Shown here: positions 4,625 to 61,242 of the stretch, one piece after another
How the letters are laid out: each line of letters opens with the position of its first letter
Position numbering within the stretch: position 1 is the stretch's first letter
DNA from: Escherichia phage UGJNEcP3
Reading direction: 5' to 3' (one strand)
Sequence record: OV876907
DNA: 64,000 nt
Translations under genes and position numbers: made by a program
The notes under the pieces: generated by a model
What the model was told of the DNA's origin: nothing
What the model saw: only the letters and a program-made list of their open reading frames with translations
Database searches by the model: none

Positions 4625-4915
4625 TTATTTACGGAACGAAATGAAACCTGCTGTGGTCATTAGTGGTTGCTTTTTAACAAACACCGTGACCGAAATAGGA
4701 GCTTCAGATTCGAGTTGTCCTGTCACTACACCGTTAAAAATGTTTTCGGTTTGTTCTGGATAAGAAAAATTCTCAACAGGTCGGATATCAAACTGTTTGT
4801 CTTCACCAAAAACTCGACGTAATTCATTACCTACGGCACTGTCAAACTCTTCGGAAGCAGGGATAACGTTTTCAACTACCAGTTCTTGACCATTAAAACG
4901 GAATGCAGATTTCAT
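4625..4915 (-). CDS. hypothetical early protein downstream of the alt cluster
   Basis: 96 aa ORF with its own GTTTAC-N18-TACTAT promoter module and GAGGAGA RBS. Confidence 0.5.
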   Translation of the reverse strand: MKSAFRFNGQELVVENVIPASEEFDSAVGNELRRVFGEDKQFDIRPVENFSYPEQTENIFNGVVTGQLESEAPISVTVFVKKQPLMTTAGFISFRK

Positions 4916-4933
4916 AATGTTCTCCTCATGTTT

Positions 4934-4963
4934 GTGTAAGGTAATAGTACCACATCCTTGTGG
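4934..4963 (-). promoter_or_regulatory. T4-type early promoter (GTTTAC -35, TACTAT -10)
   Basis: Minus strand reads GTTTAC, 18 nt spacer, TACTAT, then a leader with GAGGAGA RBS before the ATG at 4915. Confidence 0.45.
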
Positions 4964-4972
4964 TGTTGTAAA

Positions 4973-7096
4973 CTACATTTTGAATTTATTTGATAAAGAA
5001 GAGATATCCAAAGACGCGGCAAGGATTTCCATAGCTTCATTGCTTTCAGAAATGGATTCACTAATCAAGAACTGACTGAATCCATCCATCAGGCGAACTT
5101 CGCCAGTTTCCATCAAATGGTCACCATCGTAAACAGATTCGCTGAGCTCTGAAGGAGGTGTTACGGTAGCTTCCATAAGGTATTTGTGAGATACTCTATC
5201 ATTCATGGCAAAAGACGCTACTTTATCAACCTTCAACAATAATCCACGCGGAAGGATAATTTCTGCTTCTTCAGCATATTCTGTAAGGTCGCCAGGAGCG
5301 ATAACTTTAACTGCTTCAGCACCTCGAATAACCATACCAATTTCAGCAATTCTATCCGCAGGGCCTTCAGGTGCAATTGGATTACCAAACTCGTCTTCTT
5401 CCCATTCCACCTCTTCGTCATCGACTTCACCCACATCAGATGAACTACCACTAGCCAATTTAAACAACTCATCGGCTGAGGATAAAGAACCTTCATCACC
5501 AACAAAAACTGCTTGGTTGTCGAGGGCCATATAATTTTTACCAAATTCGCCAAAGATGTTAGGCTTTAATGAGGCCGACACAAAGTTCTTAAAGTAAAAT
5601 GTTTTGTTATCGATATTATGACGCAGAATTTTGTATGGTAAATCCTGACCACGATACAAAATAGTACCCTTAGGAAGTTTAATACCCTTAGTAAATGCTG
5701 AGTCTAAATCCTTAATCAATTTAATAGCCGTTGTATTGTTTTCGGATTCAGGTTTACCTAAAAGGAATAAGTTCATAGGAGCATATTCAGCTGCGCAATA
5801 TTCAATAATAGCATTGCTTTCGTCTTTGGTTAAGTCCTTAGGTTTAATGAGCTCACCTGAATAAGCATATGCATCACTAATAGAATCGTTAATTAGTTTA
5901 TAAACGGCTTCCATAGCGAAAGCAATTCGAGAGGCCTTTTCTGAAGGGGAGCCTTTAAAACGAGCGCTCAAGTTATTAACAATTTTCTTAATAATATCCA
6001 GACTATTGGTGGTATTGATTTGCGAAAGGCCACTTAAAAGTCTATCGACTTCTGTATTAAAAAATGCCATATTATTAGAGTAAATTTCAAACCCTTGTTT
6101 ATCTCTATTAGCATAATTTAGTTTAAATTTACTATCAGTCATTAAAGCGTGTGTGAGAGCAATAGTGTATCTAAAGTTGGCAAGGTCCTCGCTCTTAGAT
6201 TTAAACTGAGAAGCCTGGCGCATTTTGGTAATAGCACCTTTTTTAAAGTTCTGACTAATCTGTTCAATACCTTCATTCTCAGGGCCTTCAGCCGTGTGAA
6301 CCGGTACAGAAGCTTCAAACTCGTTATAAACCTGCAATTCTTTAGGGGACAAAGTTTCAGGCTCAGCAGTAGAATACTGCGCGGCCGCTGCCATACGACG
6401 CGAAATCTTAGTACGAGTAATGACAGCCTTATCAGTACGTTTCTCTTCAACTTGTGCAATAGATGCCGCTACGGCTTCTACTTTACTTACGGCCTGGCCG
6501 GTTTTCTTAGAAACATACACTTCGCCAACTTTAGACTCGACTTTAGTATAAAGATTGGCATCAATTTCAGGCATACCCTTGATATCTTCAATATTAGCAC
6601 CACGACGTACTAAAAGAACGTAGGTATGTTTTCCGCTGAATTGGAACATGTGGTCAACAACTTTAAACTTACCACCGGTACGGGCCATAGCCAAACGAGC
6701 TAATACGCGCTGAACGGTAGGGCCTTTACCTTTCATTTTCTTAGTAGGGAAACGGAATAAAACCGCGTCCATTTTAAGTTTGTTTATTTGTTCATATATG
6801 GTATCGAAAATGGTGTTCAGTGTACCGAGTGGATCGGTACCCAAACCACCCTTGAGTTCTGCCGGAGCGCCTTTAGCAGATAAACTCATTAAGATAACAT
6901 GGACGTACTTATCGCCATTTTTAACCATCTTAATAGCGTCGCCTTCAGACGCATAAGATACCATACGCGCTACTAAATTGTCATTACCAGGAGCATGTAC
7001 CGCAAAAATCTGCGGTACGCCTGAGCCAGGTTTAAGATTTGTTACCGGATAGTTTTTAGCGGAATCGCTATCAAAAACTTCGTTTAAATTTTCCAT
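4973..7096 (-). CDS. alt: Alt-like ADP-ribosyltransferase paralog 1 (variant catalytic motif, divergent C-terminus)
   Basis: 707 aa. N-terminal ~230 aa nearly identical to the two neighbours. ART region reads FYFKNFVSAS ... EAEIILPRG: Lys where the R-S-EXE class has Arg, and SAS instead of STS. Confidence 0.75.
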   Translation of the reverse strand: MENLNEVFDSDSAKNYPVTNLKPGSGVPQIFAVHAPGNDNLVARMVSYASEGDAIKMVKNGDKYVHVILMSLSAKGAPAELKGGLGTDPLGTLNTIFDTIYEQINKLKMDAVLFRFPTKKMKGKGPTVQRVLARLAMARTGGKFKVVDHMFQFSGKHTYVLLVRRGANIEDIKGMPEIDANLYTKVESKVGEVYVSKKTGQAVSKVEAVAASIAQVEEKRTDKAVITRTKISRRMAAAAQYSTAEPETLSPKELQVYNEFEASVPVHTAEGPENEGIEQISQNFKKGAITKMRQASQFKSKSEDLANFRYTIALTHALMTDSKFKLNYANRDKQGFEIYSNNMAFFNTEVDRLLSGLSQINTTNSLDIIKKIVNNLSARFKGSPSEKASRIAFAMEAVYKLINDSISDAYAYSGELIKPKDLTKDESNAIIEYCAAEYAPMNLFLLGKPESENNTTAIKLIKDLDSAFTKGIKLPKGTILYRGQDLPYKILRHNIDNKTFYFKNFVSASLKPNIFGEFGKNYMALDNQAVFVGDEGSLSSADELFKLASGSSSDVGEVDDEEVEWEEDEFGNPIAPEGPADRIAEIGMVIRGAEAVKVIAPGDLTEYAEEAEIILPRGLLLKVDKVASFAMNDRVSHKYLMEATVTPPSELSESVYDGDHLMETGEVRLMDGFSQFLISESISESNEAMEILAASLDISSLSNKFKM

Positions 7097-9148: not shown

Positions 9149-11236
9149 TTACCCTTGGATGAATTTTTCTGGGATGCCATAGAGGTCTATGCATGAAGCC
9201 AAAAGAGACAGTACATCAACCCGTGTAGATTTAACAAATGAATCAAAAGATACAGGGCTTTCGGAAGTATCGAAATCATCTTGATATACGACCAACTCAC
9301 CGGTTTCCATTAGTACGTCACCATCATATACCACAGATTCTTGAAGCTCATCTGATGTCATAACTTCAGCTTGAATAAATTTATTGTTAGACACCGTCCC
9401 GGAACCAGTATTGGCTGATGCATCCACGATTTTATCTATTTTTACAAGTAGCCCGCGTGGTAAAATTATTTCCTTTTCGTTGGCATGCATGCTTAATTGG
9501 CCAGGATAAATCACGTTAACCTTATGAGCGCCACTAATAGCCCAGCCAACATCAACACGGATTTGATCCGGCGCATACATATGTGTACGCACTTGACTAT
9601 CAGAGATGGTAACGCCTTCGTCATTATTATCAATGTTTAATTCTTTTCGAACATCATCGGAAGCAAGACCAATAGCCGCATTCTCTTTAAAGCCACCAAA
9701 AATGATTGGAGCTAATGAGGTTGAAACATAGTTTCTAAAATAGAATACCTTATTTTTAACTAATGCTTCGTAGATAGGCGCGCGCAAAGATTGTGCTCTA
9801 TAAACCATTATTCCTTCAGGTAAACGGTCTCCATTTTTAAAGGCAGAATCCATTCCATCAATAGCACGTTTAACTTCGCTTTCGTCCAAAACTTCATAAA
9901 AGCCTGGTTTATAACGACCAAGAAGGACATTGTTAATATCAATATAAGCTGAAGAGGCGTATTCTCTGATAGCTCGTTTTTCTGCAAGTGTATATTGTTT
10001 AGGGTCTCGAGATGTTGTTATATTAAGAATTTCTCTAGTTGATTCTATAGCGTATGTATACATTATCTTAGACAAGAATGAAGACTTACGTTGTTTCCAT
10101 ACTATTTCACTGTTTTCATTCAATATCTCTTTTTCCAAATGGAAATTGTCTTTTCTATAATCTTCAAACCAATCACTTTTAATAGATTCTGCGATTTCAT
10201 TAGCAACTTCAACAAAGGCAGCTAAAGCTTTAACTGACGTGGTTTTTTCATTTTTAATTTTTTTGACAAATGTTTCTAAAGAAGAGTTAATTTTATCACC
10301 GTAAGAAACTTCATCCGCAAATTTAAATGAATCATCCATAGTATTATAAATTTTAAAATCAATAGCCGTAGCCAACTTATCCTTAGCTGTTTCAGATGAT
10401 AACGATAGTTCAACTTCGGCCGCTTGTGGAATTAATTCTGCCGTAGCAGGCGCACTGAACTCACTAGCAGTTTGCTCGTATTTCTGAAACAATTCACCTT
10501 CATTACGATCTGATTCTAATGACTGGCTTGCTGCAATAGCACGTCGCGAAATCTTAGTCTTGGTTATAACCATTTTATCGGTGCGACGTTCTTCAACCTT
10601 AGCAATACTGCCGGCAATAGCAGTTTCTTTAGTAACCTGCAGGCCTTCTTTTTTAGAAATATAAACTTCACCAACATCAGAATCTACCTTAGTGTATAAT
10701 TCGGAATTAATTCCTGGCATACCCTTAATATCTTCAATGTTAGCTTGTTTACGAACTACTAGGATGTAAGTATGTTTACCGGTAAATTGGTACATAGCCG
10801 GAACTACTTTAAAACGTCCACCTGTTTTCTGTGCTACCAAACGTTGGATAATCCGTTGAACAATAGGCCCTTGACCTTTCATTTTCTTAGTAGGGAAACG
10901 GAACATCACTGCATCCATACGAAGCTTTTTAACTTGGTCATAAACCACATCAAAAATAGTATTAATCGCATCTACGGGAGTAGGGCCAAGGCCACCCTTA
11001 AGTTCGGCTGGAGTACCTTTAGCTGAAAGGCTCATAAGGATAACGTGGGCATATTTATCGCCTAATTTAACTTGTTTAATAGCATCACCTTCAGAAGCGT
11101 AGGATACCATACGCGCTACTAATTGGGATTCTGCATCGCCAATCTTCCAAATCTGAGGTACTTTAAGTTTTGGGTTCAAGTTTACTGTAGGCAGAGTGCC
11201 TTCGGACTCAAACACTTCATTTAATTGTTCGGTCAT
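9149..11236 (-). CDS. alt: Alt ADP-ribosyltransferase (copy most similar to T4 Alt)
   Basis: 695 aa. FYFRNYVSTS ... EKEIILPRG ... PEKFIQG; central region recalls T4 Alt more closely than the other two copies. Confidence 0.8.
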   Translation of the reverse strand: MTEQLNEVFESEGTLPTVNLNPKLKVPQIWKIGDAESQLVARMVSYASEGDAIKQVKLGDKYAHVILMSLSAKGTPAELKGGLGPTPVDAINTIFDVVYDQVKKLRMDAVMFRFPTKKMKGQGPIVQRIIQRLVAQKTGGRFKVVPAMYQFTGKHTYILVVRKQANIEDIKGMPGINSELYTKVDSDVGEVYISKKEGLQVTKETAIAGSIAKVEERRTDKMVITKTKISRRAIAASQSLESDRNEGELFQKYEQTASEFSAPATAELIPQAAEVELSLSSETAKDKLATAIDFKIYNTMDDSFKFADEVSYGDKINSSLETFVKKIKNEKTTSVKALAAFVEVANEIAESIKSDWFEDYRKDNFHLEKEILNENSEIVWKQRKSSFLSKIMYTYAIESTREILNITTSRDPKQYTLAEKRAIREYASSAYIDINNVLLGRYKPGFYEVLDESEVKRAIDGMDSAFKNGDRLPEGIMVYRAQSLRAPIYEALVKNKVFYFRNYVSTSLAPIIFGGFKENAAIGLASDDVRKELNIDNNDEGVTISDSQVRTHMYAPDQIRVDVGWAISGAHKVNVIYPGQLSMHANEKEIILPRGLLVKIDKIVDASANTGSGTVSNNKFIQAEVMTSDELQESVVYDGDVLMETGELVVYQDDFDTSESPVSFDSFVKSTRVDVLSLLASCIDLYGIPEKFIQG

Positions 11237-15079: not shown

Positions 15080-15445
15080 TTAGATATCAAATTCGTTAAG
15101 AACTACATCAAAGATTGCTTCCAGGTGTTCAGGTTTAGCACGGTTGCTCAGGATGTGACGAATCCAAGTTTTAACCAGAAGCTTACGATTATCGCCGTTC
15201 CAGCAAGGATGGGTACCTAAATCACGTTGACGGAAATCGTCATCTAAAGCGATTTTAAAAGTAGAACCTTCCATAGTGATTGAAACCGTAATACCATTTT
15301 CAAAGCGCATGTAAACGTAGTTAGGAGTCATGCACTGTTCGATTTCACACACTGTACCGTTTTCGTGTTTCCACAGGCAAATAACTTCGGAAGAACCAGC
15401 GATACCGTTAGAAACATATTTACGTTCGAAGTTGATGTAGTTCAT
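15080..15445 (-). CDS. hypothetical early protein
   Basis: 121 aa ORF preceded by a promoter-like module at 15446-15518. Confidence 0.45.
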   Translation of the reverse strand: MNYINFERKYVSNGIAGSSEVICLWKHENGTVCEIEQCMTPNYVYMRFENGITVSITMEGSTFKIALDDDFRQRDLGTHPCWNGDNRKLLVKTWIRHILSNRAKPEHLEAIFDVVLNEFDI

Positions 15446-15518
15446 TTTATTCTCCAGTTTGTTTTCGTATTATTTGGTACAGGTCTATAATAACACAACC
15501 TGTACCAAAGTAAAACAT

Positions 15519-15851: not shown

Positions 15852-15949
15852 TTTATTCTCCGGTTTGTTTTCGTATTATTTGGTACATGTCTATAGTATC
15901 ATGCCTACCGGAGATGTACACCCTTTTTTTAAGATTTAGAAACAAAAAT

Positions 15950-21016: not shown

Positions 21017-21495
21017 ACACCAAGCTCCTTATAAAGTTCTTCGCGACAGGTTTTCAGAAGTTTACCACTTTCATATGCTGATTTTTCATCAACATCACCT
21101 AAAGCCACAGCTTGCTGCATCTGGCCGTGGCGTTTAGCTGCGTATTCAAAACTTTTTACTAGCTCACGAATACGTTCTTTTTCATTGTACTCTTCAATGA
21201 ATTCAGGGTATTCCCAAACAGGTCGCATCATACGATACCACTGTTGGATGGTAATATAATTACTTCCGTTCAAATTAATAATCTGTGAAGGCTCAATAGA
21301 CCCTGGAGCATAAAAAGTTACCTGTCTTACTACATCAATACCGTCCACAATAGCCCAAGCAAAATCGAAAGTTGCCTTCTTTTCAATAGGAGTGCTTGCA
21401 CAGGACCCTAGTTTAAGGAGCTTTTGTAATACAGGAGATTTAATACTTGAAATGTATTCTGGCTTAGCCACAAAACTGTTATCACGTAATGTCAT
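21013..21495 (-). CDS. hypothetical protein (start re-set to the ATG with GAGGAAATTATT context)
   Basis: Track ORF reaches 21531; the internal ATG at 21495 has the recurrent RBS context. Confidence 0.4.
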
Positions 21496-21659
21496 AATAA
21501 TTTCCTCAATTTTTATAATCCGTAGGAGCATTATACTCTGCTCCCAAGAGTTTGTAAACTACTTTCCGAAAAGACCTTGGACACATAAAGTGGCCGCAAT
21601 TCCAAAACAAAAACAGAATGCACCAAATCTAACAATACCCCAACCAAGACTACACTCAA

Positions 21660-22300: not shown

Positions 22301-22788
22301 TTGGTAATAATCTCGATGATATCATCACGTGACAGGGAATTAATAAGAACCGTTTTAGGGTTTTCACACTGAATTTTATACGTTTCAAACATAAAACATA
22401 ATTCTTCAGCGGTATGGTAAGGACTTGAAATGCCGAGGCGATTAAACTTGTCGCTTAATGGGTCGCAAATCAAATAGAAAGTGATTCCTGAGATTTTAAC
22501 ATTAGGCTGACTGATATTAATGAACACCTCGGCATCATACTTAGAAAGGTTGTTTTGGAGAAACTCTACCATAGAGTTAACAGCTTCAGGCATGGCTTCA
22601 CGCTTTTCTTCTGCATAACGGGTAGAGTATTCTTTTTGCTTGATTTTCTTTTTAGCATTTTTAGCTAAAGTAACACGAAGATCGGTCAGGTAACCTACTG
22701 CACGGGAACCTTTAAAAACTTGGATACCGTCAGTAGAATCACCAAAAGCTTTAACAACCATTTCGTTAGTAATCATTTGCATATTCAT
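22288..22788 (-). CDS. hypothetical protein; possible Alc by size and position next to gene 63
   Basis: 166 aa ORF between rnlA and the spanins, with its own early promoter module. T4 Alc is about 167 aa at this position; sequence identity not confirmed from memory. Confidence 0.35.
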   Translation of the reverse strand: MNMQMITNEMVVKAFGDSTDGIQVFKGSRAVGYLTDLRVTLAKNAKKKIKQKEYSTRYAEEKREAMPEAVNSMVEFLQNNLSKYDAEVFINISQPNVKISGITFYLICDPLSDKFNRLGISSPYHTAEELCFMFETYKIQCENPKTVLINSLSRDDIIEIITKCLN

Positions 22789-22818
22789 TTTGTTTTCTCC
22801 TCATTAGTTGGTAGGTCT

Positions 22819-22847
22819 ATACTAACACATCATGAGGAGATGTAAAC
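22819..22847 (-). promoter_or_regulatory. T4-type early promoter
   Basis: Minus strand GTTTAC, 17 nt, TAGTAT, then leader AGACCTACCAACTAATGAGGAGA before the ATG at 22788. Confidence 0.5.
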
Positions 22848-28056: not shown

Positions 28057-29507
<1,451 letters not shown>

Positions 29508-29837
29508 TTAACTGCATTTTTTAATTGCGGTAAAATCTTTGCGAATATCAAGAACCAATTTGTAAAGATGTTTAATGGTATCAGTATCAAAATAAGCGAC
29601 GGCACAACGTGATTGGCGAATATCTTCTAATGAATATTTGCTTTCGCTAGACCCATATCCAATGATACCACTAATGCACTTGTCATTAAGCGTATATTTC
29701 TGTGGGCCATCAATATTATTTTTAGGATAGATGTAAAGGCTCCAATCAAATTTTTGTTCAAGCGTATTAACCTTAACTTCAAGAATCAGTTCAGGATGTG
29801 GATCATCTTTGGCAAAGCAAGTGTATTCAGTAAGCAT
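29508..29837 (-). CDS. hypothetical protein (start re-set)
   Basis: ATG at 29837 is preceded by GAGGAAAATATA; the track M1 at 29978 overlaps the upstream gene. Confidence 0.35.
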   Translation of the reverse strand: MLTEYTCFAKDDPHPELILEVKVNTLEQKFDWSLYIYPKNNIDGPQKYTLNDKCISGIIGYGSSESKYSLEDIRQSRCAVAYFDTDTIKHLYKLVLDIRKDFTAIKKCS

Positions 29838-29847
29838 TATATTTTCC

Positions 29848-30087
29848 TCACGCTTTCTTAGCGACTTTCCAGTCAGCTTTAAATTGGCCGACATCAGAGT
29901 GGTGAATCCAGAAACCAGATGAGCTACCATCTTCATAAAGAGGACACCCGTCGCACTCATCTTTCCAACCCATTTCACACAAAGCTTGTTCGGCTTTTTC
30001 TAAAGCTTCCGGATTGTTACCCTGGATTGTGAAGTACCATTTGCCTTTAACTTCAGAATCGTTGATTGATTCTCGTTGTAATTTCAT
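29848..30087 (-). CDS. hypothetical protein (start re-set)
   Basis: ATG at 30087 is preceded by AAGGAGAATAAA and lies downstream of promoter module 30113-30142. Confidence 0.4.
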   Translation of the reverse strand: MKLQRESINDSEVKGKWYFTIQGNNPEALEKAEQALCEMGWKDECDGCPLYEDGSSSGFWIHHSDVGQFKADWKVAKKA

Positions 30088-30112
30088 TTTATTCTCCTTA
30101 GTTGGTAAGGCT

Positions 30113-30142
30113 ATAGTATCACTACCATAGCCTGGTGTAAAC
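30113..30142 (-). promoter_or_regulatory. T4-type early promoter
   Basis: Minus strand GTTTAC, 18 nt, TACTAT, then conserved leader. Confidence 0.5.
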
Positions 30143-30144
30143 AC

Positions 30145-30372
30145 TTATTTTTGAATTAAGCCCATATAAAATTTAGTGTCTTCCGGGTGCATACCGTCAC
30201 AATACTCGACAGCCATAAAGCGGGTAAGGTCTTCAAGAGGACCCTGGACTTCAATTTGCATACTACAGAATTGAGTATCTTTAATATGGGTCATAACTAA
30301 AGAAGGATAACGATTACGGATAACTTCGTAAGTGTATTCAAAATCAACGATATCAATATTAACCTTAGCCAT
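30145..30372 (-). CDS. hypothetical protein (start re-set; track M1 is the leader ATG)
   Basis: MAKVNIDIV... start with GAGGAAAATAAA RBS; the upstream ATG sits inside the conserved leader CAACTAATGAG. Confidence 0.4.
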
Positions 30373-30404
30373 TTTATTTTCCTCACTCATTAGTTGATAG
30401 GTCT

Positions 30405-30433
30405 ATAGTATCATGTCTACAGACCTTGTAAAC
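30405..30433 (-). promoter_or_regulatory. T4-type early promoter
   Basis: Minus strand GTTTAC, 17 nt, TACTAT, then AGACCTATCAACTAATGAGTGAGGAAAATAAA and ATG. Confidence 0.5.
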
Positions 30434-30434
30434 A

Positions 30435-30695
30435 CTATTTTTGAATTTTATCGAGCCATTTACCAAGTTTAATCATTTCTTTGGTAGCTTTTTCCATACT
30501 TCTGAATTTAACCAGTAAAGGTTGTGCATCAACACCCATAACCAAAGTGGTTACAAGACTATGCTCGCCTACAAGCCATAACGAATACGTTTGAATATCG
30601 AGCCCGTAATTTCTGTCTTTATGGACTCGTACACCCATCACTTCAAATTTCTCACTGGCTTTTTCTACTGCATCCAGGAAATCGTCTTTAGTCAT
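30435..30695 (-). CDS. hypothetical protein (start re-set)
   Basis: Track ORF overlaps the upstream gene; the internal ATG at 30695 is adjacent to the upstream stop. Confidence 0.35.
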   Translation of the reverse strand: MTKDDFLDAVEKASEKFEVMGVRVHKDRNYGLDIQTYSLWLVGEHSLVTTLVMGVDAQPLLVKFRSMEKATKEMIKLGKWLDKIQK

Positions 30696-30696
30696 A

Positions 30697-31086
30697 TTAG
30701 GCCTTAAAAGTTTTTTGCAAAAGTTCAATGATTTGGTCAACGTTCTGTTCGGTGACAATGCAATGGATTTGGGTCACGCCGGCCTTAGCAATAGGCTCAT
30801 CGATTTCTTTATCTTCCACAACATATTCACGGAAGCAATAGAACTCGTCTTCATGCAACTCAAAATAATTTGGCACCAACCCAACTGCATTATAAATCTC
30901 GCCGTTAGCGCATTCGATTTCAGTCACAAATTTGTCGCCATCCATAGTCAACATATCCTTTACTTCAAACCAACCACCGTTGTCTTGGATAAGGTCGACC
31001 ATGCTTTTATTATTTTCATATTCGTCCATTTCAATAAAGTCTTTAATGCATTCAGGACGAAGTTCATAAGTTTTACCGATTTCCAT
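30697..31086 (-). CDS. hypothetical acidic protein
   Basis: 129 aa ORF with promoter module 31116-31144; N-terminal MEIGKTYEL motif. Confidence 0.45.
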   Translation of the reverse strand: MEIGKTYELRPECIKDFIEMDEYENNKSMVDLIQDNGGWFEVKDMLTMDGDKFVTEIECANGEIYNAVGLVPNYFELHEDEFYCFREYVVEDKEIDEPIAKAGVTQIHCIVTEQNVDQIIELLQKTFKA

Positions 31087-31115
31087 TTTTATTTCCTCAT
31101 GTAGTGGATAGGCCT

Positions 31116-31144
31116 ATAGTATCACGTTTAAAGGCTTTGTAAAC
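31116..31144 (-). promoter_or_regulatory. T4-type early promoter
   Basis: Minus strand GTTTAC, 17 nt, TACTAT, then leader with GAGGAAATAAAA RBS. Confidence 0.5.
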
Positions 31145-31196
31145 CATTAAATACCAAAAAGGGAAGACCGAAGTCTTCCCATTATAAATCAATAAC

Positions 31197-32102
31197 TTAT
31201 AGACCAGCTAACAGGTCGTCCAGACCATCGTCATCAGAAGGACTTACTGATGGTTCAGGAGTGGTGGAACGAGCTGGCGTAGATGGTTTAGAGTCGTATG
31301 CATCGAGGTCTGCACTGAATGCGTCCAGGTCATCACCAATCTTATCAGCAGCTGCAGAAGCTTTAGCGGCAGCACCACCAAGAGCAGCAGTACCAACAAC
31401 TTTCTTAAACTTGGCTTCGTTAGTTTCAAACGATTTGAATTCGAGCAGTTTAGAAAGGTCGTGCATTTCTTCCATCAATTTAGCTTGGTAAGCTTCATCA
31501 TTGATGTTAGGAATTTCAGACTGACCCATGAATTTGGAATCGTCGTAGTTTTTGAAGTCGCCAACTTTCTTAGATTTCAGTACGAAGTTAGCACCATCAA
31601 ACGGACATGTTACATCAACCGGCACTTCACCAATATCGGTATCAACTTCAACCATTTGGTTGATTTTATCCATAATTTTCTGACCGAAACGGAATTTAAA
31701 CACTTTACCTTCGTTAGCAGGCACTGCACTATCCTTAATAACAAGGATGTTAGCCCAGAAGGAAGTTTTACGTTTCATCAGTTTGTATTCAGCGTTGTTT
31801 GTATTAAACGTATCGTTCTGGTTCATGTATTTACATACAGGACATGAATCGAAATCGCCGTGAGTAGACGTACAGTTTTCAATGTACCATTGACCATTTT
31901 TCTTAAAGCCGTGGTTAACGAGCTTAATGAATGGAGATGGATTTTCTTCGTTTTTCGAAGGTAGGAAACGAATTACCGCAGTACCAACACCATTGTCGTC
32001 TTTCAATTTCCATTCAGCTTTATCATCGGAAGAGAAAGAAGAACCACCTTTCATTGCAGACAGTTGAGCAGCCAGTTGGGAAGGGTCTTTACGTTTGAAC
32101 AT
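31197..32102 (-). CDS. 32: single-stranded DNA-binding protein gp32
   Basis: 301 aa; [14 protein letters not shown]...[11 protein letters not shown]...[15 protein letters not shown]... and acidic C-terminal tail match recalled T4 gp32. Confidence 0.9.
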
Positions 32103-32192
32103 ATTATTTACCTTAGCAGATTTTAGCAGTTGTATTTTATTAACAGTTTTTAACAGATTGAGTTAGTATATTAACACATTTGATATGAAGCA

Positions 32193-32846
32193 TTAAAACT
32201 TACAAGATTTGATAATTTCAATGAACAATTTACGAGCTTCTAAATTATCGATTATAAGAATTTTCTTATAAGCATTTAATTTAGTCGAATACTTAGACCA
32301 AACAAGGTCGTTGGTCTGTTCATCATGTTTATTTATTATATCCATAAATGAATCAAGCAAAATAAACGTTTCGAACGAAATAACATTCGATTGAAGGAGC
32401 TTAAAAATATAGCTCGAGTTAACTTTTTTATTATAATCAAAAATTTCAGAAAGCGCTTGAACTTCCACTTTCTTACTGAAATAATAGATGTTTTTGATAT
32501 CATCCTCAAAAACTTGTTTTATTCTTTTAAGTCTACCAATGTATTCTCGGTAAAAGACTAAGGCGTCAGCATCACTGATGTCGCCAATCCATGCGTCTTG
32601 GTTAGCTACCAAGTTACTCATGAAGATAAGAGCAAGCTCTTTCAAAGTGTATTTATCACTCAATTTCTCAAAGAAATATTTGTCGCGACGTTTTTGATAA
32701 GCCGTATCAGAGATTCGCATGACCCAGTTATATTTTATAACGTCGTATTTGGCGTTGAAGTGATGCTTTAACATCAAATATAGGGAATATACACTTTTGC
32801 CATTCACCATACGGTTATTGTTTGGTGGCATGCGAATCTTAATCAT
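32193..32846 (-). CDS. 59: helicase loader gp59
   Basis: 217 aa; KYDVIKYNWVMRISD...LVANQDAWIGDISDADALVFYREYIGRLK is near-identical to recalled T4 gp59. Confidence 0.9.
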   Translation of the reverse strand: MIKIRMPPNNNRMVNGKSVYSLYLMLKHHFNAKYDVIKYNWVMRISDTAYQKRRDKYFFEKLSDKYTLKELALIFMSNLVANQDAWIGDISDADALVFYREYIGRLKRIKQVFEDDIKNIYYFSKKVEVQALSEIFDYNKKVNSSYIFKLLQSNVISFETFILLDSFMDIINKHDEQTNDLVWSKYSTKLNAYKKILIIDNLEARKLFIEIIKSCKF

Positions 32847-33145
32847 AACAAGAAATCCAGAGTATTAGTTTTTTGCGTTCGAGCCATTGAAGGTCGAAGC
32901 AAGTTATCATCAATGGCTTCGTTCATAATTTTATCAATAATTCCTGCAGGCAAATAACGAGCAAAGTTACCTTCAGGGATGCTGTTCTCTTCCAACCATG
33001 CTGTAGCCGCTTCGAGGTAACTACAACCTTCAGCTTCAACAAAGGCCTCAATATCAAGGCCATTCTGTTGTTTGTTTACCAATACATGGACAGGTTCAGA
33101 AGCGGTATTAACCGCTCCATCAAAATCATTCAAAGATTGTGTCAT
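32843..33145 (-). CDS. 33: late transcription co-activator gp33
   Basis: 100 aa acidic protein in the T4 position between 59 and dsbA. Confidence 0.6.
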   Translation of the reverse strand: MTQSLNDFDGAVNTASEPVHVLVNKQQNGLDIEAFVEAEGCSYLEAATAWLEENSIPEGNFARYLPAGIIDKIMNEAIDDNLLRPSMARTQKTNTLDFLL

Positions 33146-33399: not shown

Positions 33400-34347
33400 T
33401 TAATAAAAATCAGCTACTGTAGCAGTTAGTTTAGACAAACCAGATTTAACGAAATAAGGATAGACTTTGGATTTCGAAGGTTTGTTATACGTATTATATC
33501 TTTCAGTAATTAAAGCAACAATATCATCTGGAATAAAGTCCATATCAATTAAGATTTGGTTTTCACAGAAACGTTCATATTGTTCTTCAGTAAGAAGTGT
33601 TTTAATTATATCATGGTCGTAATAATTCAGAGCAATCGCTTCAAGTTCCTTGGCACGAGTGCTAGGAGTACGTTCGCCTTCAACCATTGTCAACCAGTAA
33701 TCACCACGAACTTTAATACTCGCAACGTTATCCTTGCGGTCGCCTTTAATAACCTTAGTTACACAATCAAGCAACGCATCACCAGATTTTGTTTTGACGA
33801 ATTTTTTCTGCATTGGAGACCATTGTTTCACCCCAGGGAATTTATGAAGTTGGGTAAAGTCACCATCAGAAGAACCAATCATAACGGGGTGACCTAAAGC
33901 CGTAAGGATACGAGTCAATACAGCAATATGGTCATCGGCCTCGATTGTGTCGATATTCATAACAATATAAGGCATGTTTTGTTCAAGCTCATCCACAATA
34001 ATATGCATTGCAGTGAATAAGCCTTCCCAATCAAATGGTGATTCGTCACGTGCCTTAGCACGGTTTTTCTTATAATAAGAAGAATAACGACGACGCCAAT
34101 AACCTGATTTAGAGTTATCAACACAAATGATTAGTTGGTTGTAACCTTGTTTTTTAAAGTCTTTAATGTTTTTCTTGATTGAATTCAAGACGAGATGTCG
34201 AAGCATTGCTGTTGTTACTTTAGGAAATCCGGCGTTCTCGCCAAACTCTTGGAAAGCCGCAGCCATAATGATTTGGCTGAAATCTAGGAGTAAAAACCCA
34301 TCTTTTTGTTGGTCTTCTTCAGGAAGTAAAAAATCTAAATCGTTCAT
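33400..34347 (-). CDS. rnh: RNase H (5-prime to 3-prime exonuclease / flap endonuclease)
   Basis: Start re-set to MNDLDFLL...; blocks CVDNSKSGYWRR, SSDGDFTQLHK, NVKQWSPM, ASIKVRGD match recalled T4 RNase H. Confidence 0.85.
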   Translation of the reverse strand: MNDLDFLLPEEDQQKDGFLLLDFSQIIMAAAFQEFGENAGFPKVTTAMLRHLVLNSIKKNIKDFKKQGYNQLIICVDNSKSGYWRRRYSSYYKKNRAKARDESPFDWEGLFTAMHIIVDELEQNMPYIVMNIDTIEADDHIAVLTRILTALGHPVMIGSSDGDFTQLHKFPGVKQWSPMQKKFVKTKSGDALLDCVTKVIKGDRKDNVASIKVRGDYWLTMVEGERTPSTRAKELEAIALNYYDHDIIKTLLTEEQYERFCENQILIDMDFIPDDIVALITERYNTYNKPSKSKVYPYFVKSGLSKLTATVADFY

Positions 34348-34374
34348 ATGAACCTCTGTCCAATTAGTGTAGAG

Positions 34375-34403
34375 GTTCATTATATCATGACCCTAGAAGA
34401 AGT
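34375..34403 (-). promoter_or_regulatory. T4-type early promoter for rnh
   Basis: Minus strand GTTTAC, 17 nt, TATAAT, then leader to the rnh ATG. Confidence 0.5.
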
Positions 34404-34414
34404 AAACACTTTGC

Positions 34415-45152: not shown

Positions 45153-45424
45153 AAATTGGAGGTATACATCATTAGATAACGGTGTATATCTTCATACCCT
45201 TCATTAAATTGCTCAATAAGAGTATCACGTTCGTCTTCAGTTAAAGACTTAAAGAGTTTATTAAAAGATAAGCCGTTAAGTTCCTTTCCATGTTCATTAC
45301 GAATACCTAACTCATTCAAAAAGGCAATAAACTCATCACGACGTTGCATGATGTCTTCACAATCTGTTTTAATCAAAATAGAAACAATAGTAGCAATTTC
45401 GGAAACGATTTCAATTTTAGTCAT
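45149..45424 (-). CDS. asiA: anti-sigma70 factor AsiA
   Basis: 91 aa; ASILIK...FIAFLNE...LIEQFNEGYEDIHRYLMMYT matches recalled T4 AsiA. Confidence 0.9.
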   Translation of the reverse strand: MTKIEIVSEIATIVSILIKTDCEDIMQRRDEFIAFLNELGIRNEHGKELNGLSFNKLFKSLTEDERDTLIEQFNEGYEDIHRYLMMYTSNF

Positions 45425-45464
45425 AATATTCTCTTCAATTCAGTACGTCATTATCTGATAGGGC

Positions 45465-45494
45465 TATATTAACATATCCTTAGGGATTGTAAAC
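45465..45494 (-). promoter_or_regulatory. T4-type early promoter for asiA
   Basis: Minus strand GTTTAC, 18 nt, TAATAT, then leader with GAAGAGAATATT RBS. Confidence 0.5.
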
Positions 45495-46837: not shown

Positions 46838-47473
46838 TCAGATAATTGCGTTGGTTACGGTTTTGATAACTTCAGATGATACGTTTTGGAAGTCGATATA
46901 AGTATTCTTACCACCAGTCTTAATCTTAACATCAAGATTCAAGGAAGTAAACACTTGTTTTTCTTTATCAGTCATATTATAACCGAAAATACGCATCATT
47001 CCATCACGACGGACTTCGATTTGACGAATACCATTGGTACGTTTAGCGAATCGAACTTCAAGGTTGCTACGGTTTTCAGCAATTTCACGAATCTCGATAC
47101 GGTCTTCTAATAAAGCTTTAACTTCATCAGCCAGTGTTACCATTTCAGGAGTAACACCACGTGAACTGCGCGTTTTACGTTTTTCCAACATCTCTGGAGC
47201 ATTTTCAGAAGCGAACAGGTCTGCAGCTTTTTGAACGAGGTCCATTGCTTCACCTGTAGCCACTAAACCATCACCGGATTTTTCGATGAATCCTTTCTTA
47301 ATCAATACACCGATGTTAGAGTTAACTACCGCAGCACTAAATTGCTCATTCAGGGCTTCACGGACTTCGCCTGAAGTGATGAAGTTATGCTTGATGATAT
47401 GTACTAAGATTGAAGCAGTTTTTTCATTCAGGGCGTCTTCAGAAGCTTTGATGATATAAGTAATTTTAGACAT
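46838..47473 (-). CDS. motA: middle transcription activator MotA
   Basis: 211 aa; MSKITYIIKAS...NSNIGVLIKKGFIEKSGDGL...TNGIR...MRIFGY matches recalled T4 MotA. Confidence 0.85.
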   Translation of the reverse strand: MSKITYIIKASEDALNEKTASILVHIIKHNFITSGEVREALNEQFSAAVVNSNIGVLIKKGFIEKSGDGLVATGEAMDLVQKAADLFASENAPEMLEKRKTRSSRGVTPEMVTLADEVKALLEDRIEIREIAENRSNLEVRFAKRTNGIRQIEVRRDGMMRIFGYNMTDKEKQVFTSLNLDVKIKTGGKNTYIDFQNVSSEVIKTVTNAII

Positions 47474-47508
47474 TTTGTATCTCCGATAACCATTTATTTG
47501 ATAGGTCT

Positions 47509-47537
47509 ATAGTATCATGTTTAAAGCAGATGTAAAC
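47509..47537 (-). promoter_or_regulatory. T4-type early promoter for motA
   Basis: Minus strand GTTTAC, 17 nt, TACTAT, then AGACCTATCAAATAAATGG leader. Confidence 0.5.
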
Positions 47538-49443: not shown

Positions 49444-49893
49444 TTAGTATGCCTGCAGAATGAATTTAAAGTTATCAGCCAACATGCGGTTCATTTCTTC
49501 CAGTGTCTGGAGGTCGGAACTATGATTGCGGGTGAAAGCCATTGCAATTTGACCCTTACCAAAACCGGTGGTCAGAGGTTTCATCTTAGAAGCTGGTACA
49601 TAAAGAACTTCATACACAACACCGTTCACTGCCATGGTGCGAGCTGATTGAGAACGTTTCTTACGAATGTTAGCCACGATGCCATCAAGACCTTGGGCCG
49701 AACGTTGATTACCGACATAAAAACGAGCAGCTACGACACGAGAATCAGCTCCACCTTTAACAAAGAAGTAGAAGCCTGGCTGAGCAGAGATTTCTTTAGA
49801 AGGTTTACCATTTTGGTATTCACCGTTCTTAACATAAGCAACAGTAGTAGCACCAGCAGACAGAACGTTACGGCGAGTCATATAAGTATTCAT
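49444..49893 (-). CDS. ndd: nucleoid disruption protein Ndd
   Basis: 149 aa; [10 protein letters not shown]...[15 protein letters not shown]...AFTRNH...[20 protein letters not shown] is near-identical to recalled T4 Ndd. Confidence 0.9.
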
Positions 49894-49970
49894 ATCAATT
49901 TCCTCAGTAGATTAATGTTTTGTTATCCGGTCAACGAGAACCATTATAACATGATTCTCGAGGTTGTAAA

Positions 49971-50339
49971 CTATTTTTGTAGCTGTTCTAAAATAAATCC
50001 GCTCGTATAAAAAGAAGCATTATAAACCTTGTTCAGCGGGTTCAAAGCCTGTCCGTAAGTATCACGTAGTTCTTTGATAACATTTTCATAGCTTACATAA
50101 TAACCACTATGATAATACGGGTCCATACTCATACGAAATTTAATAAACCGATAAAATCCTGTTTCTGGGTCTTGAACGAAAACGAAATCGGCACCCATCA
50201 TAATTTTTGAATCTACGCCAGGAATCATACTTTGATTGAATGCCACCGATGCATCCTGAAGGCTGAGTTGTTTAAAGAACATTACCTTAGCATTACCAAA
50301 AAAGATTTTAGACATGATAATTTCCTTATTCAGCGTCAA
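49971..50339 (-). CDS. hypothetical protein
   Basis: 122 aa ORF upstream of ndd. Confidence 0.4.
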   Translation of the reverse strand: MTLNKEIIMSKIFFGNAKVMFFKQLSLQDASVAFNQSMIPGVDSKIMMGADFVFVQDPETGFYRFIKFRMSMDPYYHSGYYVSYENVIKELRDTYGQALNPLNKVYNASFYTSGFILEQLQK

Positions 50340-50548: not shown

Positions 50549-50659
50549 TCAGAAGTTAAAGAATACACGTACATGGTCAATCATAAAAACGATTGGGAAA
50601 ATGCTCAATACCATTAACAACACAAACATGTTCCAAATTGCTTTAAGTAAGTTTTTCAT
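50549..50659 (-). CDS. small hydrophobic peptide, 36 aa (absent from ORF track)
   Basis: MKNLLKAIWNMFVLLMVLSIFPIVFMIDHVRVFFNF; first gene after promoter module at about 50671-50700. Confidence 0.35.
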   Translation of the reverse strand: MKNLLKAIWNMFVLLMVLSIFPIVFMIDHVRVFFNF

Positions 50660-50804
50660 AATCATCTCCATTAGTTGATAGGTCTATAGTATCATGATTA
50701 ATGGAGATGTATACCGATTTATGCCAATTTCCACAACAATAAACTAAAACATACGCAAATCACTGGGATACAGGCCATCCAAATAAGGCACCACGTTTTG
50801 CTAC

Positions 50805-51071
50805 TCAAAACACCACCTCTTTTATCTCAATCAATCCCCTGTACAATGCAGTGCGGAGGTCATAAAGAATATCTATGCCGTCAACATTATCCAGTTTTCC
50901 ATCAATAAGCTTTTCTAAATCTTCCTTTGATGCGATTAAAGGACGGAGAAATTTACATTCAGAAAGAGATAACTCTGTAGTAACATCATCACCTTCACCT
51001 GACGCGTCATACATAGCGGCAACAACCATGCCTGTAACTTTGTGTTTAGCGTAATATAATTTGATATCCAT
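50805..51071 (-). CDS. hypothetical acidic protein (start re-set; track M1 lies in the promoter leader)
   Basis: ATG at 51071 preceded by GAGGAGAACAAA; upstream promoter module. Confidence 0.4.
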   Translation of the reverse strand: MDIKLYYAKHKVTGMVVAAMYDASGEGDDVTTELSLSECKFLRPLIASKEDLEKLIDGKLDNVDGIDILYDLRTALYRGLIEIKEVVF

Positions 51072-51127
51072 TTTGTTCTCCTCATTAGTTGATAGGAAGA
51101 TAGTAACACCATCCATGGCATTATAAC

Positions 51128-51355
51128 TTAAGCAATGGAATGTTTTGGATGCTGTTTAGCCCAACCTACTAAAAATTCCCAATACTTTTCGATAGAACCG
51201 TAAAGATTAATTACCGTAGGAGTGGTAACTTCAGTCCAATCTTTTTGAACATTACCTGTTTTAATATTGGTAAGCTTGTGAAACACTTTACCGTTCTCAA
51301 ATTTATATTCTTCGATTTTACGATTGATTGCTTTAACAGAAGTAATAGAAGTCAT
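51128..51355 (-). CDS. hypothetical protein (start re-set)
   Basis: ATG at 51355 preceded by GAGAGGAAAATATT; upstream promoter module at about 51375-51415. Confidence 0.4.
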   Translation of the reverse strand: MTSITSVKAINRKIEEYKFENGKVFHKLTNIKTGNVQKDWTEVTTPTVINLYGSIEKYWEFLVGWAKQHPKHSIA

Positions 51356-51431
51356 AATATTTTCCTCTCGTGTAGTTGATAGGAAGATAGTAACACCATC
51401 CATGGCGTATGTAAACACTTATTTTAAAAAA

Positions 51432-59433: not shown

Positions 59434-59506
59434 TTTATTTTCCTCTCATTTGTTGATAGGGTAATAGTATCACACTACTACCCTGTTGTATACCACTTTT
59501 TAAACT

Positions 59507-60058
59507 TTATGCAAAATGAATATCAGCATACTCAACAATAAAACTTTCAGGAACTACTTTAAAGGTGCCAAGGAACACGATGTTATACAGCTTAACACCT
59601 TCTTCAACCCATTGGTCTGTGATATAACCGGACATGCTGGTAGTTTCGTAAGTGGGGCCATACTTGCAATTGTATTCAAACGGTTTAGGTGAAACGAAAA
59701 AGACACCTTTACCTAATTTCCATTTAAAATCAACACCAACATGAGATCGGTCAATAGTTTCAACGTCTTGAGCTACTACGCCACGGATATCATTGCTTTC
59801 ACATACATACCCATCATGGGATTCAACTTCTTCAACTACAGGAGCGATGTATCCGGTAAATTCAGTAGATTCCAAGAATTTAGCACGCACATATCCGAAT
59901 TGAGTTTCGGTCTGGCCATTTTTAGGAATAATACGCACTTTAACTTCTTTAATTCCACCTACTAAATTGGTACGAATACCTGCAACTTCAACTAAACTGC
60001 CCGCAGCTTTTGAACGAGACTTTTTGGATACACGAACAATTTCACCGATAGTAATCAT
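59507..60058 (-). CDS. hypothetical protein, paralog A of a tandem pair
   Basis: 183 aa; C-terminal block GYITDQWVEEGVKLYNIVFLGTFKVVPESF shared with ORF 60132-60680. Confidence 0.45.
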   Translation of the reverse strand: MITIGEIVRVSKKSRSKAAGSLVEVAGIRTNLVGGIKEVKVRIIPKNGQTETQFGYVRAKFLESTEFTGYIAPVVEEVESHDGYVCESNDIRGVVAQDVETIDRSHVGVDFKWKLGKGVFFVSPKPFEYNCKYGPTYETTSMSGYITDQWVEEGVKLYNIVFLGTFKVVPESFIVEYADIHFA

Positions 60059-60131
60059 AATTTTTCTCTCTTGGTTAAAGGATTATAATCCATAAGAGCC
60101 ATTATAACATGGCTCTCGATAAAGTAAACTA

Positions 60132-60680: not shown

Positions 60681-61186
60681 ATTGTTCTCAATTCAATAAA
60701 ATCTACGAGTTCGGCATAAGATTTGCGGAACATTACTTGGCGGCCACCGATGACAACCTCATCTTCTGGTATTTCGTAAACAGCAAGATAGAATCCTTTA
60801 GAAGATAATTCTTTACGCTCTTCACGAGTGAACCAGCGCATCATATCATACTCACTGGCAAAAGCAAAATGGTAGAGGTTAACAAACCAGCCTGGAATAT
60901 AATCGTCGCAGCCTTCATAATCAGGTCGTTTCCACTTAGTTCTAATGGTTTTATTAGAATTTTCTACCAGCAACTTATCTTGACTTGGTAGTGGGATATT
61001 TTTATTAATGCTATGATGATGTCTAAAAATAGGTCTGTCTAAACCTACTTCTAATAACCAGCCTTCACTCCATGAGTCTGTTGTACTTCTATACGGGGTC
61101 ATTTGAGTACAGAGGTCTCGTCGTATTGTGATAGTGTTTCCATCATCTAAGATACTGAACGATGACTCAACTCGATAAATTTTCAT
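60677..61186 (-). CDS. hypothetical protein
   Basis: 169 aa ORF with promoter module 61214-61242. Confidence 0.45.
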   Translation of the reverse strand: MKIYRVESSFSILDDGNTITIRRDLCTQMTPYRSTTDSWSEGWLLEVGLDRPIFRHHHSINKNIPLPSQDKLLVENSNKTIRTKWKRPDYEGCDDYIPGWFVNLYHFAFASEYDMMRWFTREERKELSSKGFYLAVYEIPEDEVVIGGRQVMFRKSYAELVDFIELRTI

Positions 61187-61213
61187 TTTGTTCTCCTCAT
61201 GTTGATAGGGTAG

Positions 61214-61242
61214 ATAATATCATGTCATGAGGAGAAGTAAAC
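61214..61242 (-). promoter_or_regulatory. T4-type early promoter
   Basis: Minus strand GTTTAC, 17 nt, TATTAT, then leader CTACCCTATCAACATGAGGAGAACAAA and ATG. Confidence 0.5.

Follow-up and report, generated by a model that had tools for sequence, protein, structure and literature searches.

The window analyzed here, a stretch of 64,000 nucleotides (nt) from Escherichia phage UGJNEcP3 (sequence record OV876907), carries on its minus strand a family of early promoters joined to short leaders. This report concerns those promoter-leader modules and the inverted repeats within them, in which one arm lies in the spacer between the -35 and -10 hexamers and the other lies downstream of the -10. The minus-strand genes of the window are nearly all of T4 early or middle type (alt, DNA ligase, pseT, alc, nrdAB, td, frd, 32, 59, rnh, asiA, motA, ndd, rIIAB, and motB). 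Positions 29000-33000 are 100% identical to Escherichia phage UGJNEcP4 (OV877765.1), a T4-like Dhakavirus of the Tevenvirinae, and are 93-94% identical to JS10 and other relatives; window position 1 is position 119102 of OV877765.1, and the window spans the ends of that record.

Early promoter-leader modules on the minus strand

A search for GTTTAC-N15-19-TANTAT gave nine matches in the window where 0.33 would be expected, and all nine lie on the minus strand; when the -35 could deviate at one position, the matches numbered 22 on the minus strand and 3 on the plus strand. Curation, in which a start codon and a ribosome-binding site (RBS) were required within ~85 nt and intragenic matches were dropped, left 17 complete modules and one truncated copy without a -35 (~51069-51119). 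All lie on the minus strand ahead of early genes, including alc, motB, ndd, asiA, rnh, and frd.x, and each is named here by the coordinate of its first -35 base (e.g., 61242, 30433). A preliminary description of this DNA had listed twelve such sites, and eight of its coordinates are exact (22819-22847, 30113-30142, 30405-30433, 31116-31144, 45465-45494, 47509-47537, 59464-59493, and 61214-61242). Three were displaced by 10-14 nt (4934-4963 is corrected to 4944-4973, 51375-51415 to 51387-51416, and 50671-50700 to 50686-50714, where the -35 is GTATAC), and one, 51086-51120, is the truncated copy; the six modules absent from that list (60129, 49971, 34407, 21559, 15921, and 15515) include a TATAAT-type subfamily.

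The modules share one layout: an A-rich UP-like tract, GTTTAC(A), 17-18 nt, TGn-TAnnAT, CCT|A(TCAAC), and an RBS consisting of GGAG, an A-rich run, and ATG. In a position-by-position logo built over the 17 aligned modules, the bases G-T-T-T-A-C of the -35 are present in 14-17 sites, positions -8 to -3 ahead of it are A-rich (11-15 of 17), and TG at -3/-2 of the -10 occurs in 16 of 17, followed by TAnTAT. The CCT at 4-6 nt past the -10 hexamer (15, 14, and 16 of 17 sites) carries ~1.5-1.8 bits, equal to the hexamers, while the ATCAAC after it is weaker (0.4-0.9 bits); the GGA of the RBS is kept in 14-15 of 17 sites, with an A-rich run up to the ATG. A sigma-70 scan called three sites at 30-31 kb (TTTACA, 16-17 nt, TACTAT with TG). 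The identification of these sites as early promoters therefore stands, given the -35 (G)TTTACA, the TG-extended -10, the A-rich upstream tract, and their position on the early-gene strand of a T4-like phage, and the modules are cassettes in which an immediate-early promoter of a T-even-type phage is joined to a leader. The elements recognized by the host sigma-70 RNA polymerase would be the A-rich UP-like tract, -35 (G)TTTACA, TGn extended -10, and TAnnAT.

The near-invariant leader of 23 nt that had been proposed for these sites did not hold up: the 23-mer AGACCTATCAACTAATGAGGAGA is matched by only two sites at up to 3 mismatches, and TATNNNCCTATCAA, which has six exact copies, all inside modules, is not above chance at up to 2 mismatches (26 found versus 27.5 expected). 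Conservation past the -10 is present, but it falls mostly in the discriminator/+1 region and the RBS, the explanation that the preliminary description had itself set against its proposal of a shared leader function. The ATG that had been pointed out within the leader (22786-22847) is out of frame with the start codon of the gene and has no RBS of its own, and on these grounds we rejected it as a start codon. What does point to a post-transcriptional layer is the covariation of the variable middle of the leader, or of the discriminator, with the spacer, and not leader invariance. As first described, the modules are textbook T4 biology and of little importance in themselves, with a practical use in correcting over-extended starts of open reading frames (ORFs) and in annotating early transcription units in Dhakavirus genomes.

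One early promoter is entered in the T4 record as Pe133295; provided that the number is its start coordinate, transcription begins at the A seven nt past the -10, after CT. By analogy, +1 here is probably the A of CCT|ATCAAC, which would make AGACCT the discriminator and ATCAAC the first transcribed bases. T4 early promoters are UP/-35/TGn/-10 promoters with additional consensus regions (Hinton 2010, PMC2988021). The modules share with them the -35 GTTTAC(A), 17-18 nt spacing, TG-extended -10, A-rich upstream tract, and CT|A start context, as well as the ATCAACTA leader and the GGAGAATAAA-ATG RBS, both read directly in parts of the T4 genome (for example, GTTTAC...TGGTACTAT-acaacTATCAACTActga...GGAGAATAAA-ATG). 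TACTAT-AGACCT is favored here and TACTAT-ACAACT in T4, with no difference in kind. Consensus sequences for T4 promoters and RBSs were reportedly drawn up by Liebig and Rüger in 1989. A likeness of AUCAACUA to translational enhancers or NAD-capping start contexts, which we take to be weak, was set aside.

Complementarity between promoter spacers and leaders

In the hairpins of these modules, the 5' arm sits in the untranscribed spacer, beginning 1-4 nt past the -35, and the 3' arm lies downstream of the -10; folding confirmed them in 11-12 of the 17 window modules, the lowest z-score being -4.4. They are of two types. In type i (60129, 59493, 49971, 30433, 30142, 21559, and 15515), the 3' arm consists of the discriminator together with the 3' half of the -10, which places the -10 in the loop; in type ii (61242, 50714, 22847, and 15921), the 3' arm is the Shine-Dalgarno sequence (SD). 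Module 34407 pairs its SD too, but with a 5' arm made of the -10 end and the discriminator instead of the spacer. Stems involving the SD, that of 34407 included, are 8-11 base pairs (bp) long.

The specificity of this pairing was assessed by comparing the duplex energy of each spacer with its own downstream region and with the regions of other modules over 20,000 permutations; the register of the TACTAT-type stem relative to the -10 varies by one nt between modules, and the permutation test therefore replaces a column-wise covariation count. The module set was widened to the other early regions of the genome (n = 36 promoters), the late region of this phage and T4 coordinates 76-160 kb being kept outside the statistics. 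Own pairs averaged -11.3 kcal/mol against -7.4 kcal/mol for swapped pairs, a difference reached in 0 of 20,000 permutations (z = -9.2), and the 21 early promoters of T4 behaved in the same manner (-9.7 versus -6.3 kcal/mol; 0 of 20,000; z = -6.5). The strongest T4 cases are the regB promoter (15 bp, -21 kcal/mol), motB, motB.2, the ndd region, the ipI locus, and the promoter upstream of denV. Because T4 early promoters give the same own-versus-swapped result, the complementarity is T-even-wide and not peculiar to this phage.

Covariation within families of related promoters is consistent with this result. Among TATAAT-type modules gathered from viral contigs and aligned (12 distinct sequences), the helix of 8 bp that surrounds the -10 has 97.9% of its cells paired, and compensatory changes occur at five of its eight pairs; 0 of 500 shuffles reached the observed score, and controls slid along the alignment paired at 36-45%. 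The helix of 60129 is thus backed by covariation across related promoters, and the T4 motB promoter has the same architecture with other arms. The promoters of motB and motB.2 are each of the same type in T4 and here, with differing arm sequences, and among alc promoter orthologues the stem is kept while the arms change. At the regB promoter, the start of the spacer pairs with the SD in five of six lineages with differing arm sequences (CTCCTGTAG/CTACAGGAG, TTTTCCTCTTGACTG/CAGTTAAGAGGAGAA, TTCTCCTCTT/AAGAGGAGAA, TCTCC/GGAGA, and TTTCCTT/AAGGAGA, the latter two surrounding a nested type i stem). The orthologous loci were searched by single proteins, with 9-18 loci each, and the covariation rests on few lineages. 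Transition-type mismatches in the stems, scored symmetrically, are G·T on the sense strand in 18 cases and A·C in 4 (binomial p = 0.004), a count of 22 events of which some come from paralogous copies. Because G·T is tolerated over A·C, sense-strand RNA is favored over a DNA cruciform or an antisense RNA, and the sequences thus point to a structure that acts as sense-strand RNA.

The Rfam 15 covariance models gave no match at the gathering threshold anywhere in the window on either strand, and our literature search returned no earlier general description of repeats enclosing early promoters. Repoila reportedly described, in 1994, early promoters with an overlapping inverted repeat that flank T-even internal-protein genes, the nearest prior description known to us; in agreement with it, the -10 of the T4 ipI-locus promoter is flanked by a repeat of 9 bp. 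We conclude that the spacer anti-leader arms are real, conserved in kind across T-even phages, and only partly anticipated in the literature reached. The modules of the window, with their arms, are as follows.

61184..61242, minus strand: module before a motB.2-like gene; -35 61237-61242, -10 61214-61219, predicted +1 ~61207, ATG 61184-61186; type ii stem, spacer arm 61225-61237 TTCTCCTCATG with SD arm 61190-61202 CATGAGGAGAA (-19.4 kcal/mol, z = -3.1)
60056..60129, minus strand: TATAAT-type module before a motB-like gene; -10 60101-60106; type i helix, arms ~60110-60124 and 60088-60102 around the -10, then GGATTATAA
59431..59493, minus strand: module with -35 GTATAC; -10 59464-59469; type i stem AGGGTAGTAG/CTATTACCCT, 59474-59485 with 59457-59467, around the -10
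51353..51416, minus strand: module; -10 51387-51392; only a small intra-spacer hairpin, no spacer-to-leader stem
51069..51119, minus strand: truncated module copy; no -35 hexamer, TGCTTAAGTTATAAT in its place; TACTAT 51100-51105; RBS GGAGAACAAAATG
50657..50714, minus strand: module before a 36-codon ORF; -35 GTATAC; type ii stem, spacer arm ATCTCCATTA 50698-50710 with SD arm TAATGGAGAT 50662-50674 (fold z = -4.4)
49891..49971, minus strand: TATAAT-type module before an ndd-like gene; -10 49943-49948; type i helix CGAGAATCA/TGGTTCTCG with one U·G pair, around the -10
47471..47537, minus strand: module right behind an intrinsic terminator; no significant spacer-to-leader stem
45422..45494, minus strand: module before an asiA-like gene; -10 TAATAT; no spacer-to-leader stem
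34345..34407, minus strand: TATAAT-type module before rnh; 5' arm ATGAACCTCT, from the last two -10 bases through the discriminator into the first transcribed bases; 3' arm AGAGGTTCAT, the SD and the bases just ahead of the start codon
31161..31180, minus strand: intrinsic terminator hairpin GGGAAGAC-TTCG-GTCTTCCC plus TTTTT, after gene 32 and directly upstream of the 31144 promoter
31084..31144, minus strand: module; -35 31139-31144, -10 31116-31121, ATG 31084-31086; no significant spacer-to-leader stem
30370..30433, minus strand: module; -10 30405-30410, predicted +1 ~30398; type i stem AGGTCTGTAG/CTATAGACCT, 30416-30427 with 30398-30408, around the -10 (-16.9 kcal/mol, z = -2.1); perfect stem GGTCTATAG in the JS10 orthologue
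30085..30142, minus strand: module; -10 30113-30118; type i stem AGGCTATGG/CTATAGCCT, 30124-30134 with 30107-30116, around the -10 (fold z = -2.9), one base pair longer in the JS10 orthologue; RBS GGAGAATAAAATG
22786..22847, minus strand: module before an alc-like gene; type ii stem, spacer arm TCTCCTCAT 22831-22841 with SD arm ATGAGGAGA 22795-22805 (fold z = -3.05)
21493..21559, minus strand: TATAAT-type module; -10 21530-21535; type i helix TCTTGGGAGCA/TGCTCCTA-GGA around the -10, then GGATTATAA
15849..15921, minus strand: module with -35 GTGTAC; type ii stem, spacer arm TCTCCGGT 15906-15915 with SD arm ACCGGAGA 15856-15865; RBS GGAGAATAAAATG
15443..15515, minus strand: module with -35 TTTTAC; -10 15487-15492; 12-bp type i stem TTTGGTACAGGT/ACCTGTACCAAA, 15496-15510 with 15472-15486, around the -10 (-20.1 kcal/mol, fold z = -3.0); RBS GGAGAATAAAATG
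4913..4973, minus strand: module downstream of the alt genes; intra-spacer hairpin CCACA/TGTGG only, no spacer-to-leader stem

Two smaller regularities accompany the stems. A TAG or ATAG ~7-10 nt upstream of the -10 is conserved in TACTAT-type spacers (e.g., 30416-30419, 22834-22840, and 15906-15909, minus strand); it is kept even where the main stem involves the SD, and it can pair with the CTA(T) of TACTAT as a small inner helix. TATAAT-type modules share (C/T)GGATTATAA(A/T) right after the hairpin (21508-21530, 60078-60100, and 49920-49935, minus strand), for which the T4 motB promoter (T4 genome part L006, ~7150-7215) has GTGGAGTATAAA as the counterpart; the inner bases of this shared segment extend the helix.

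Transcript origin and access to the ribosome-binding site

We think it probable, at about 60%, that these modules are T-even early cassettes with a spacer-leader hairpin that is confined to read-through RNA and there conceals the RBS or insulates the cistron. This reading combines the promoter anatomy, the RegB-type RBS with a regB gene in the genome, and the specific, covarying, and G·U-tolerant complementarity of spacer and leader, all of which are established, with the expected position of the transcription start. The 5' arms belong to the -35/-10 spacer (for 34407, to the -10 and discriminator), and because they are thus upstream of the predicted start, the hairpin would be possible only in read-through RNA; the module's own start would fall between the arms or inside the 3' arm, so that mRNA from its own promoter could not form it. 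Own-promoter mRNA would then have a free RBS and would be both translated and open to RegB, and read-through RNA from an upstream co-oriented promoter would hold both arms and fold. In type ii modules, folding would bury the RBS, expression of the gene would be limited to the period in which its own early promoter is active, and in long transcripts the GGAG would be out of reach of RegB. In type i modules, a stem-loop just upstream of the nuclease-sensitive leader may protect the 3' end of the upstream cistron once the leader has been cut, or insulate neighboring cistrons from one another.

Extension of early transcripts from upstream promoters is established for T4 (PMC2988021), and no terminator directly precedes 30 of the 36 promoters. 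In partition-function folding, the mean probability that the SD is unpaired was 0.65 in own-start RNA and 0.42 in read-through RNA (Wilcoxon p = 5e-5). It was at or below 0.2 in read-through RNA at 61242 (0.81 own-start versus 0.00 read-through), 50714 (0.73 versus 0.00), 22847 (0.88 versus 0.18), and 15921 (0.91 versus 0.04), and 0.36 at 34407.

An arrangement of this kind has been described for T4 e, soc, 49, and I-TevI, whose long transcripts conceal the RBS by means of a 5' arm located ahead of the start of the proximal promoter (PMC3014915; McPheeters 1986). As in those genes, the SD or AUG here is predicted to pair with a segment upstream of the proximal start, and own-promoter transcripts alone are expected to be translatable. 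In those genes, however, the proximal promoter is late (TATAAATA) and the arrangement delays expression, whereas the promoter here is of the early sigma-70 type, the arm lies in the -35/-10 spacer, confinement to the early period would be expected, and many genes instead of few are concerned.

The preliminary description had also suggested cleavage at the GGAG by a RegB-type endoribonuclease, and this is borne out at the level of the motif. Strong intergenic RegB/S1 sites have the form GG*AGRAYARAA, and RegB is inhibited by secondary structure (PMC3014915, including Durand 2006). Exact GGAGRAYARAA occurs five times in the window against 0.35 expected, always on the minus strand and always at a module RBS (15445, 15851, 30087, 51071, and 61186, minus strand; the RBSs of 61242, 30142, and 15515 are among them). 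Most other module RBSs have GGAG or GGA and an A-rich run in place of the full 11-nt consensus. The genome has a regB homologue of 152 amino acids at OV877765.1 58798-59256, outside the window and adjoining vs (PF10715, E = 1.6e-69). The motif and the gene together suggest that RegB uses the module RBSs; a difference from the known RegB/S1 sites is that in type ii modules they are predicted to be single-stranded only in own-promoter transcripts. Most of the middle and late transcripts with a GGAG escape RegB (PMC3014915), and a GGAG shielded in read-through RNA would fit this observation.

Several observations weigh against a hairpin that is specific to read-through RNA. Five of the 17 window modules (51416, 47537, 45494, 31144, and 4973) have no such stem. 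The +1 position is deduced from one T4 promoter name and the usual 7-nt rule. Promoters backed by a terminator would be expected to be stemless, and their stems do tend to be weaker, averaging -8.8 kcal/mol against -11.8 kcal/mol for the others, but the difference is not significant (n = 6 versus 30, p = 0.105); 15921, which lies behind a terminator, carries a strong stem. For alc, the promoter of this genus is of type ii and that of a T4-like contig forms a type i stem of 12 bp, and one regB lineage has a type i stem only; because of this switch of type and this lineage, SD occlusion is not the only thing conserved. Type i stems miss the RBS, which stays accessible, and the role proposed for them is speculation and the weakest step of the argument. 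Finally, duplication and gene conversion, and not selection on each base, could account for some of the likeness between copies.

Alternative accounts, module exchange, and implications

Contacts of polymerase and of the ribosome or RegB might by themselves explain the conservation, with copies homogenized in the manner of PeSL cassettes and the repeats arising as functionless by-products. The most conserved positions are indeed exactly those of the promoter, the start region, and the RBS, extra consensus regions have already been noted in T4 early promoters (PMC2988021), and the stemless modules fit such an account, as do the truncated copy, which begins in mid-spacer and points to recombination inside modules, and the occurrence of one module, ATCTCCTGTAG...CTACAGGAGA, before regB here and upstream of denV in T4. 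Neither polymerase contacts nor duplication, however, can explain complementarity within a module that is kept while the sequence changes: in two phages, the spacers pair with their own leader and not with those of others (0 of 20,000 permutations in each), compensatory changes in the arms are seen between both paralogues and orthologues, and G·U is favored over A·C. We therefore consider it unlikely that promoter and RBS constraints are the whole explanation. That the hairpins attenuate or terminate read-through, as a local equivalent of the PeSL stem-loop that limits accumulated tandem early transcription, has in our estimation only a slim chance of being correct. PeSL stem-loops beside early promoters do terminate in RB49 and phi1 (PMC2839356), a classical terminator lies just upstream of 6 of the 36 promoters, and a GGGG...CCCC hairpin encloses the -35, with a T-run in the spacer, in four T4-like contigs (L017, L019, L021, and L054). 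But the stems that enclose the -10 or pair with the SD have no U-run, being followed by ATCAAC or ACGGAT, and the arms of type ii are 25-50 nt apart, unlike those of an intrinsic terminator; PeSL stem-loops, moreover, stand upstream of the AT-rich tract and not around the -10, and a scan of 29-32 kb on the early-gene strand found only the classical hairpin at 31161-31180. A terminator acting in antisense was rejected, as the T-run on the opposite strand begins ~10 nt past the stem, which is too distant.

The repeats could instead act in DNA, as cruciforms or hairpins that modulate melting or the shut-off of early promoters, or as recombination hotspots for the shuffling of cassettes. They enclose the -10, the region that must melt; how T4 shuts off its early promoters is incompletely understood (PMC3014915); PeSL elements bring about recombination and give rise to mini-circles (PMC2839356); and, according to the T4 record, an earlier sequence had the segment between the Pe133295 arms the other way round. 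A cruciform, on the other hand, needs both strands to be paired, and a G·T on the sense strand is an A·C on the other, so that the 18-to-4 excess argues against it; the loops of 6-10 nt (up to 50 nt in type ii) would make extrusion unfavorable, and none of the indels that distinguish 29-33 kb from JS10 falls at a module border. Larger loops are known to disfavor cruciform extrusion. We regard a DNA-level role as very improbable, and prefer a hairpin of read-through RNA. The inverted segment of the T4 RefSeq record is 14 nt long (133300-133313; L007 14397-14410), is flagged as the inverted complement of an earlier reported sequence, and covers most of the Pe133295 hairpin loop and the inner end of the 5' arm; it is either a past sequencing artifact at a hairpin or a real inversion between repeats.

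The modules have much in common with the PeSL cassettes (Arbiol 2010, PMC2839356; Comeau 2014, PMC4122927), which likewise combine a repeated intergenic AT-rich tract, early promoter, SD, and start codon by small genes, and a few cassettes here carry an upstream terminator hairpin (31161-31180, and one before 47537). The PeSL stem-loop, however, is a terminator upstream of the promoter, whereas here the 5' arm is in the spacer, the 3' arm is past the -10 or at the SD, and there is no U-run; an upstream hairpin with a T-run is present at 6 of the 36 promoters and at 3 of the 17 in the window (31144, 47537, and 15921). The terminator at 31161-31180 and the 31144 promoter together form a PeSL-like composite. 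In the four T4-like contigs mentioned above (L017, L019, and L021 at ~330-400, which are alc promoter orthologues, and L054 at 9952-10008), GGGG(G)...CCCC(C) flanks the -35 and the T-run is the spacer itself, so that terminator and promoter share bases in a layout more compact than the published PeSL arrangement.

Exchange of modules has left several traces. The truncated copy is identical to the 51416 module from mid-spacer (GCCATGGATGGTGT) through TACTAT, the leaders diverging after ATCAACTA; it reads GCCATGGATGGTGT-TACTAT-CTTCCTATCAACTA, keeps the TG-extended -10 and an exact RegB-consensus RBS, and looks like a recombination or duplication junction inside a promoter. A MotA-box middle promoter near 51120 was considered and rejected: TGCTTAA occurs there, but at the wrong distance from both -10-like hexamers. 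The regB promoter of this phage (OV877765.1 ~59257-59313) has the arms ATCTCCTGTAG...CTACAGGAGA of the T4 promoter upstream of denV (L009 ~15356-15413), whereas the arms of T4's own regB promoter are quite different, and because the regB module here matches that of another T4 gene, whole modules may move between genes. The truncated copy and the module common to different genes in T4 and this phage thus hint at shuffling. In 29-33 kb, two indels separate the window from JS10, a 237-nt insert and a duplication of frd.2, neither at a module border; JS10 has the insert and the tandem frd.2a/frd.2b (L063 842-1078 and 2332-2688; window 29834-29841 and 31072-31090), both missing here, and the junction of the duplication is marked by a repeat of 19 nt that lies in the 5' end of the gene and away from the promoter. 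PeSL-type recombination was set aside as the cause of these indels, since they are away from module borders. OV877765.1 begins and ends with the same 127 nt, which occur once in the window (51363-51489), and its linear ends are therefore an assembly overlap located in a promoter-rich region.

The spacer-embedded arms are statistically solid in this phage and in T4 and are backed by covariation, and we infer a function for them from these sequences. A broader proposal, which we put forward tentatively and hold to be possible more than likely, is that they constitute a general T-even switch that responds to the origin of the transcript, with early cistrons translatable and RegB-sensitive only on mRNA from their own promoter and silent, RegB-resistant, or insulated on read-through RNA. 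If this is true, the switch would explain how RegB inactivates early mRNAs yet spares most middle and late transcripts with GGAG, and why immediate-early expression, including that of regB itself, ends once early promoters are shut off. A mechanism known from a handful of T4 late genes would then extend to a large share of the early genes, tying both translation and RegB sensitivity to the promoter of origin, and promoter spacers could be selected for what they encode in RNA made from upstream.

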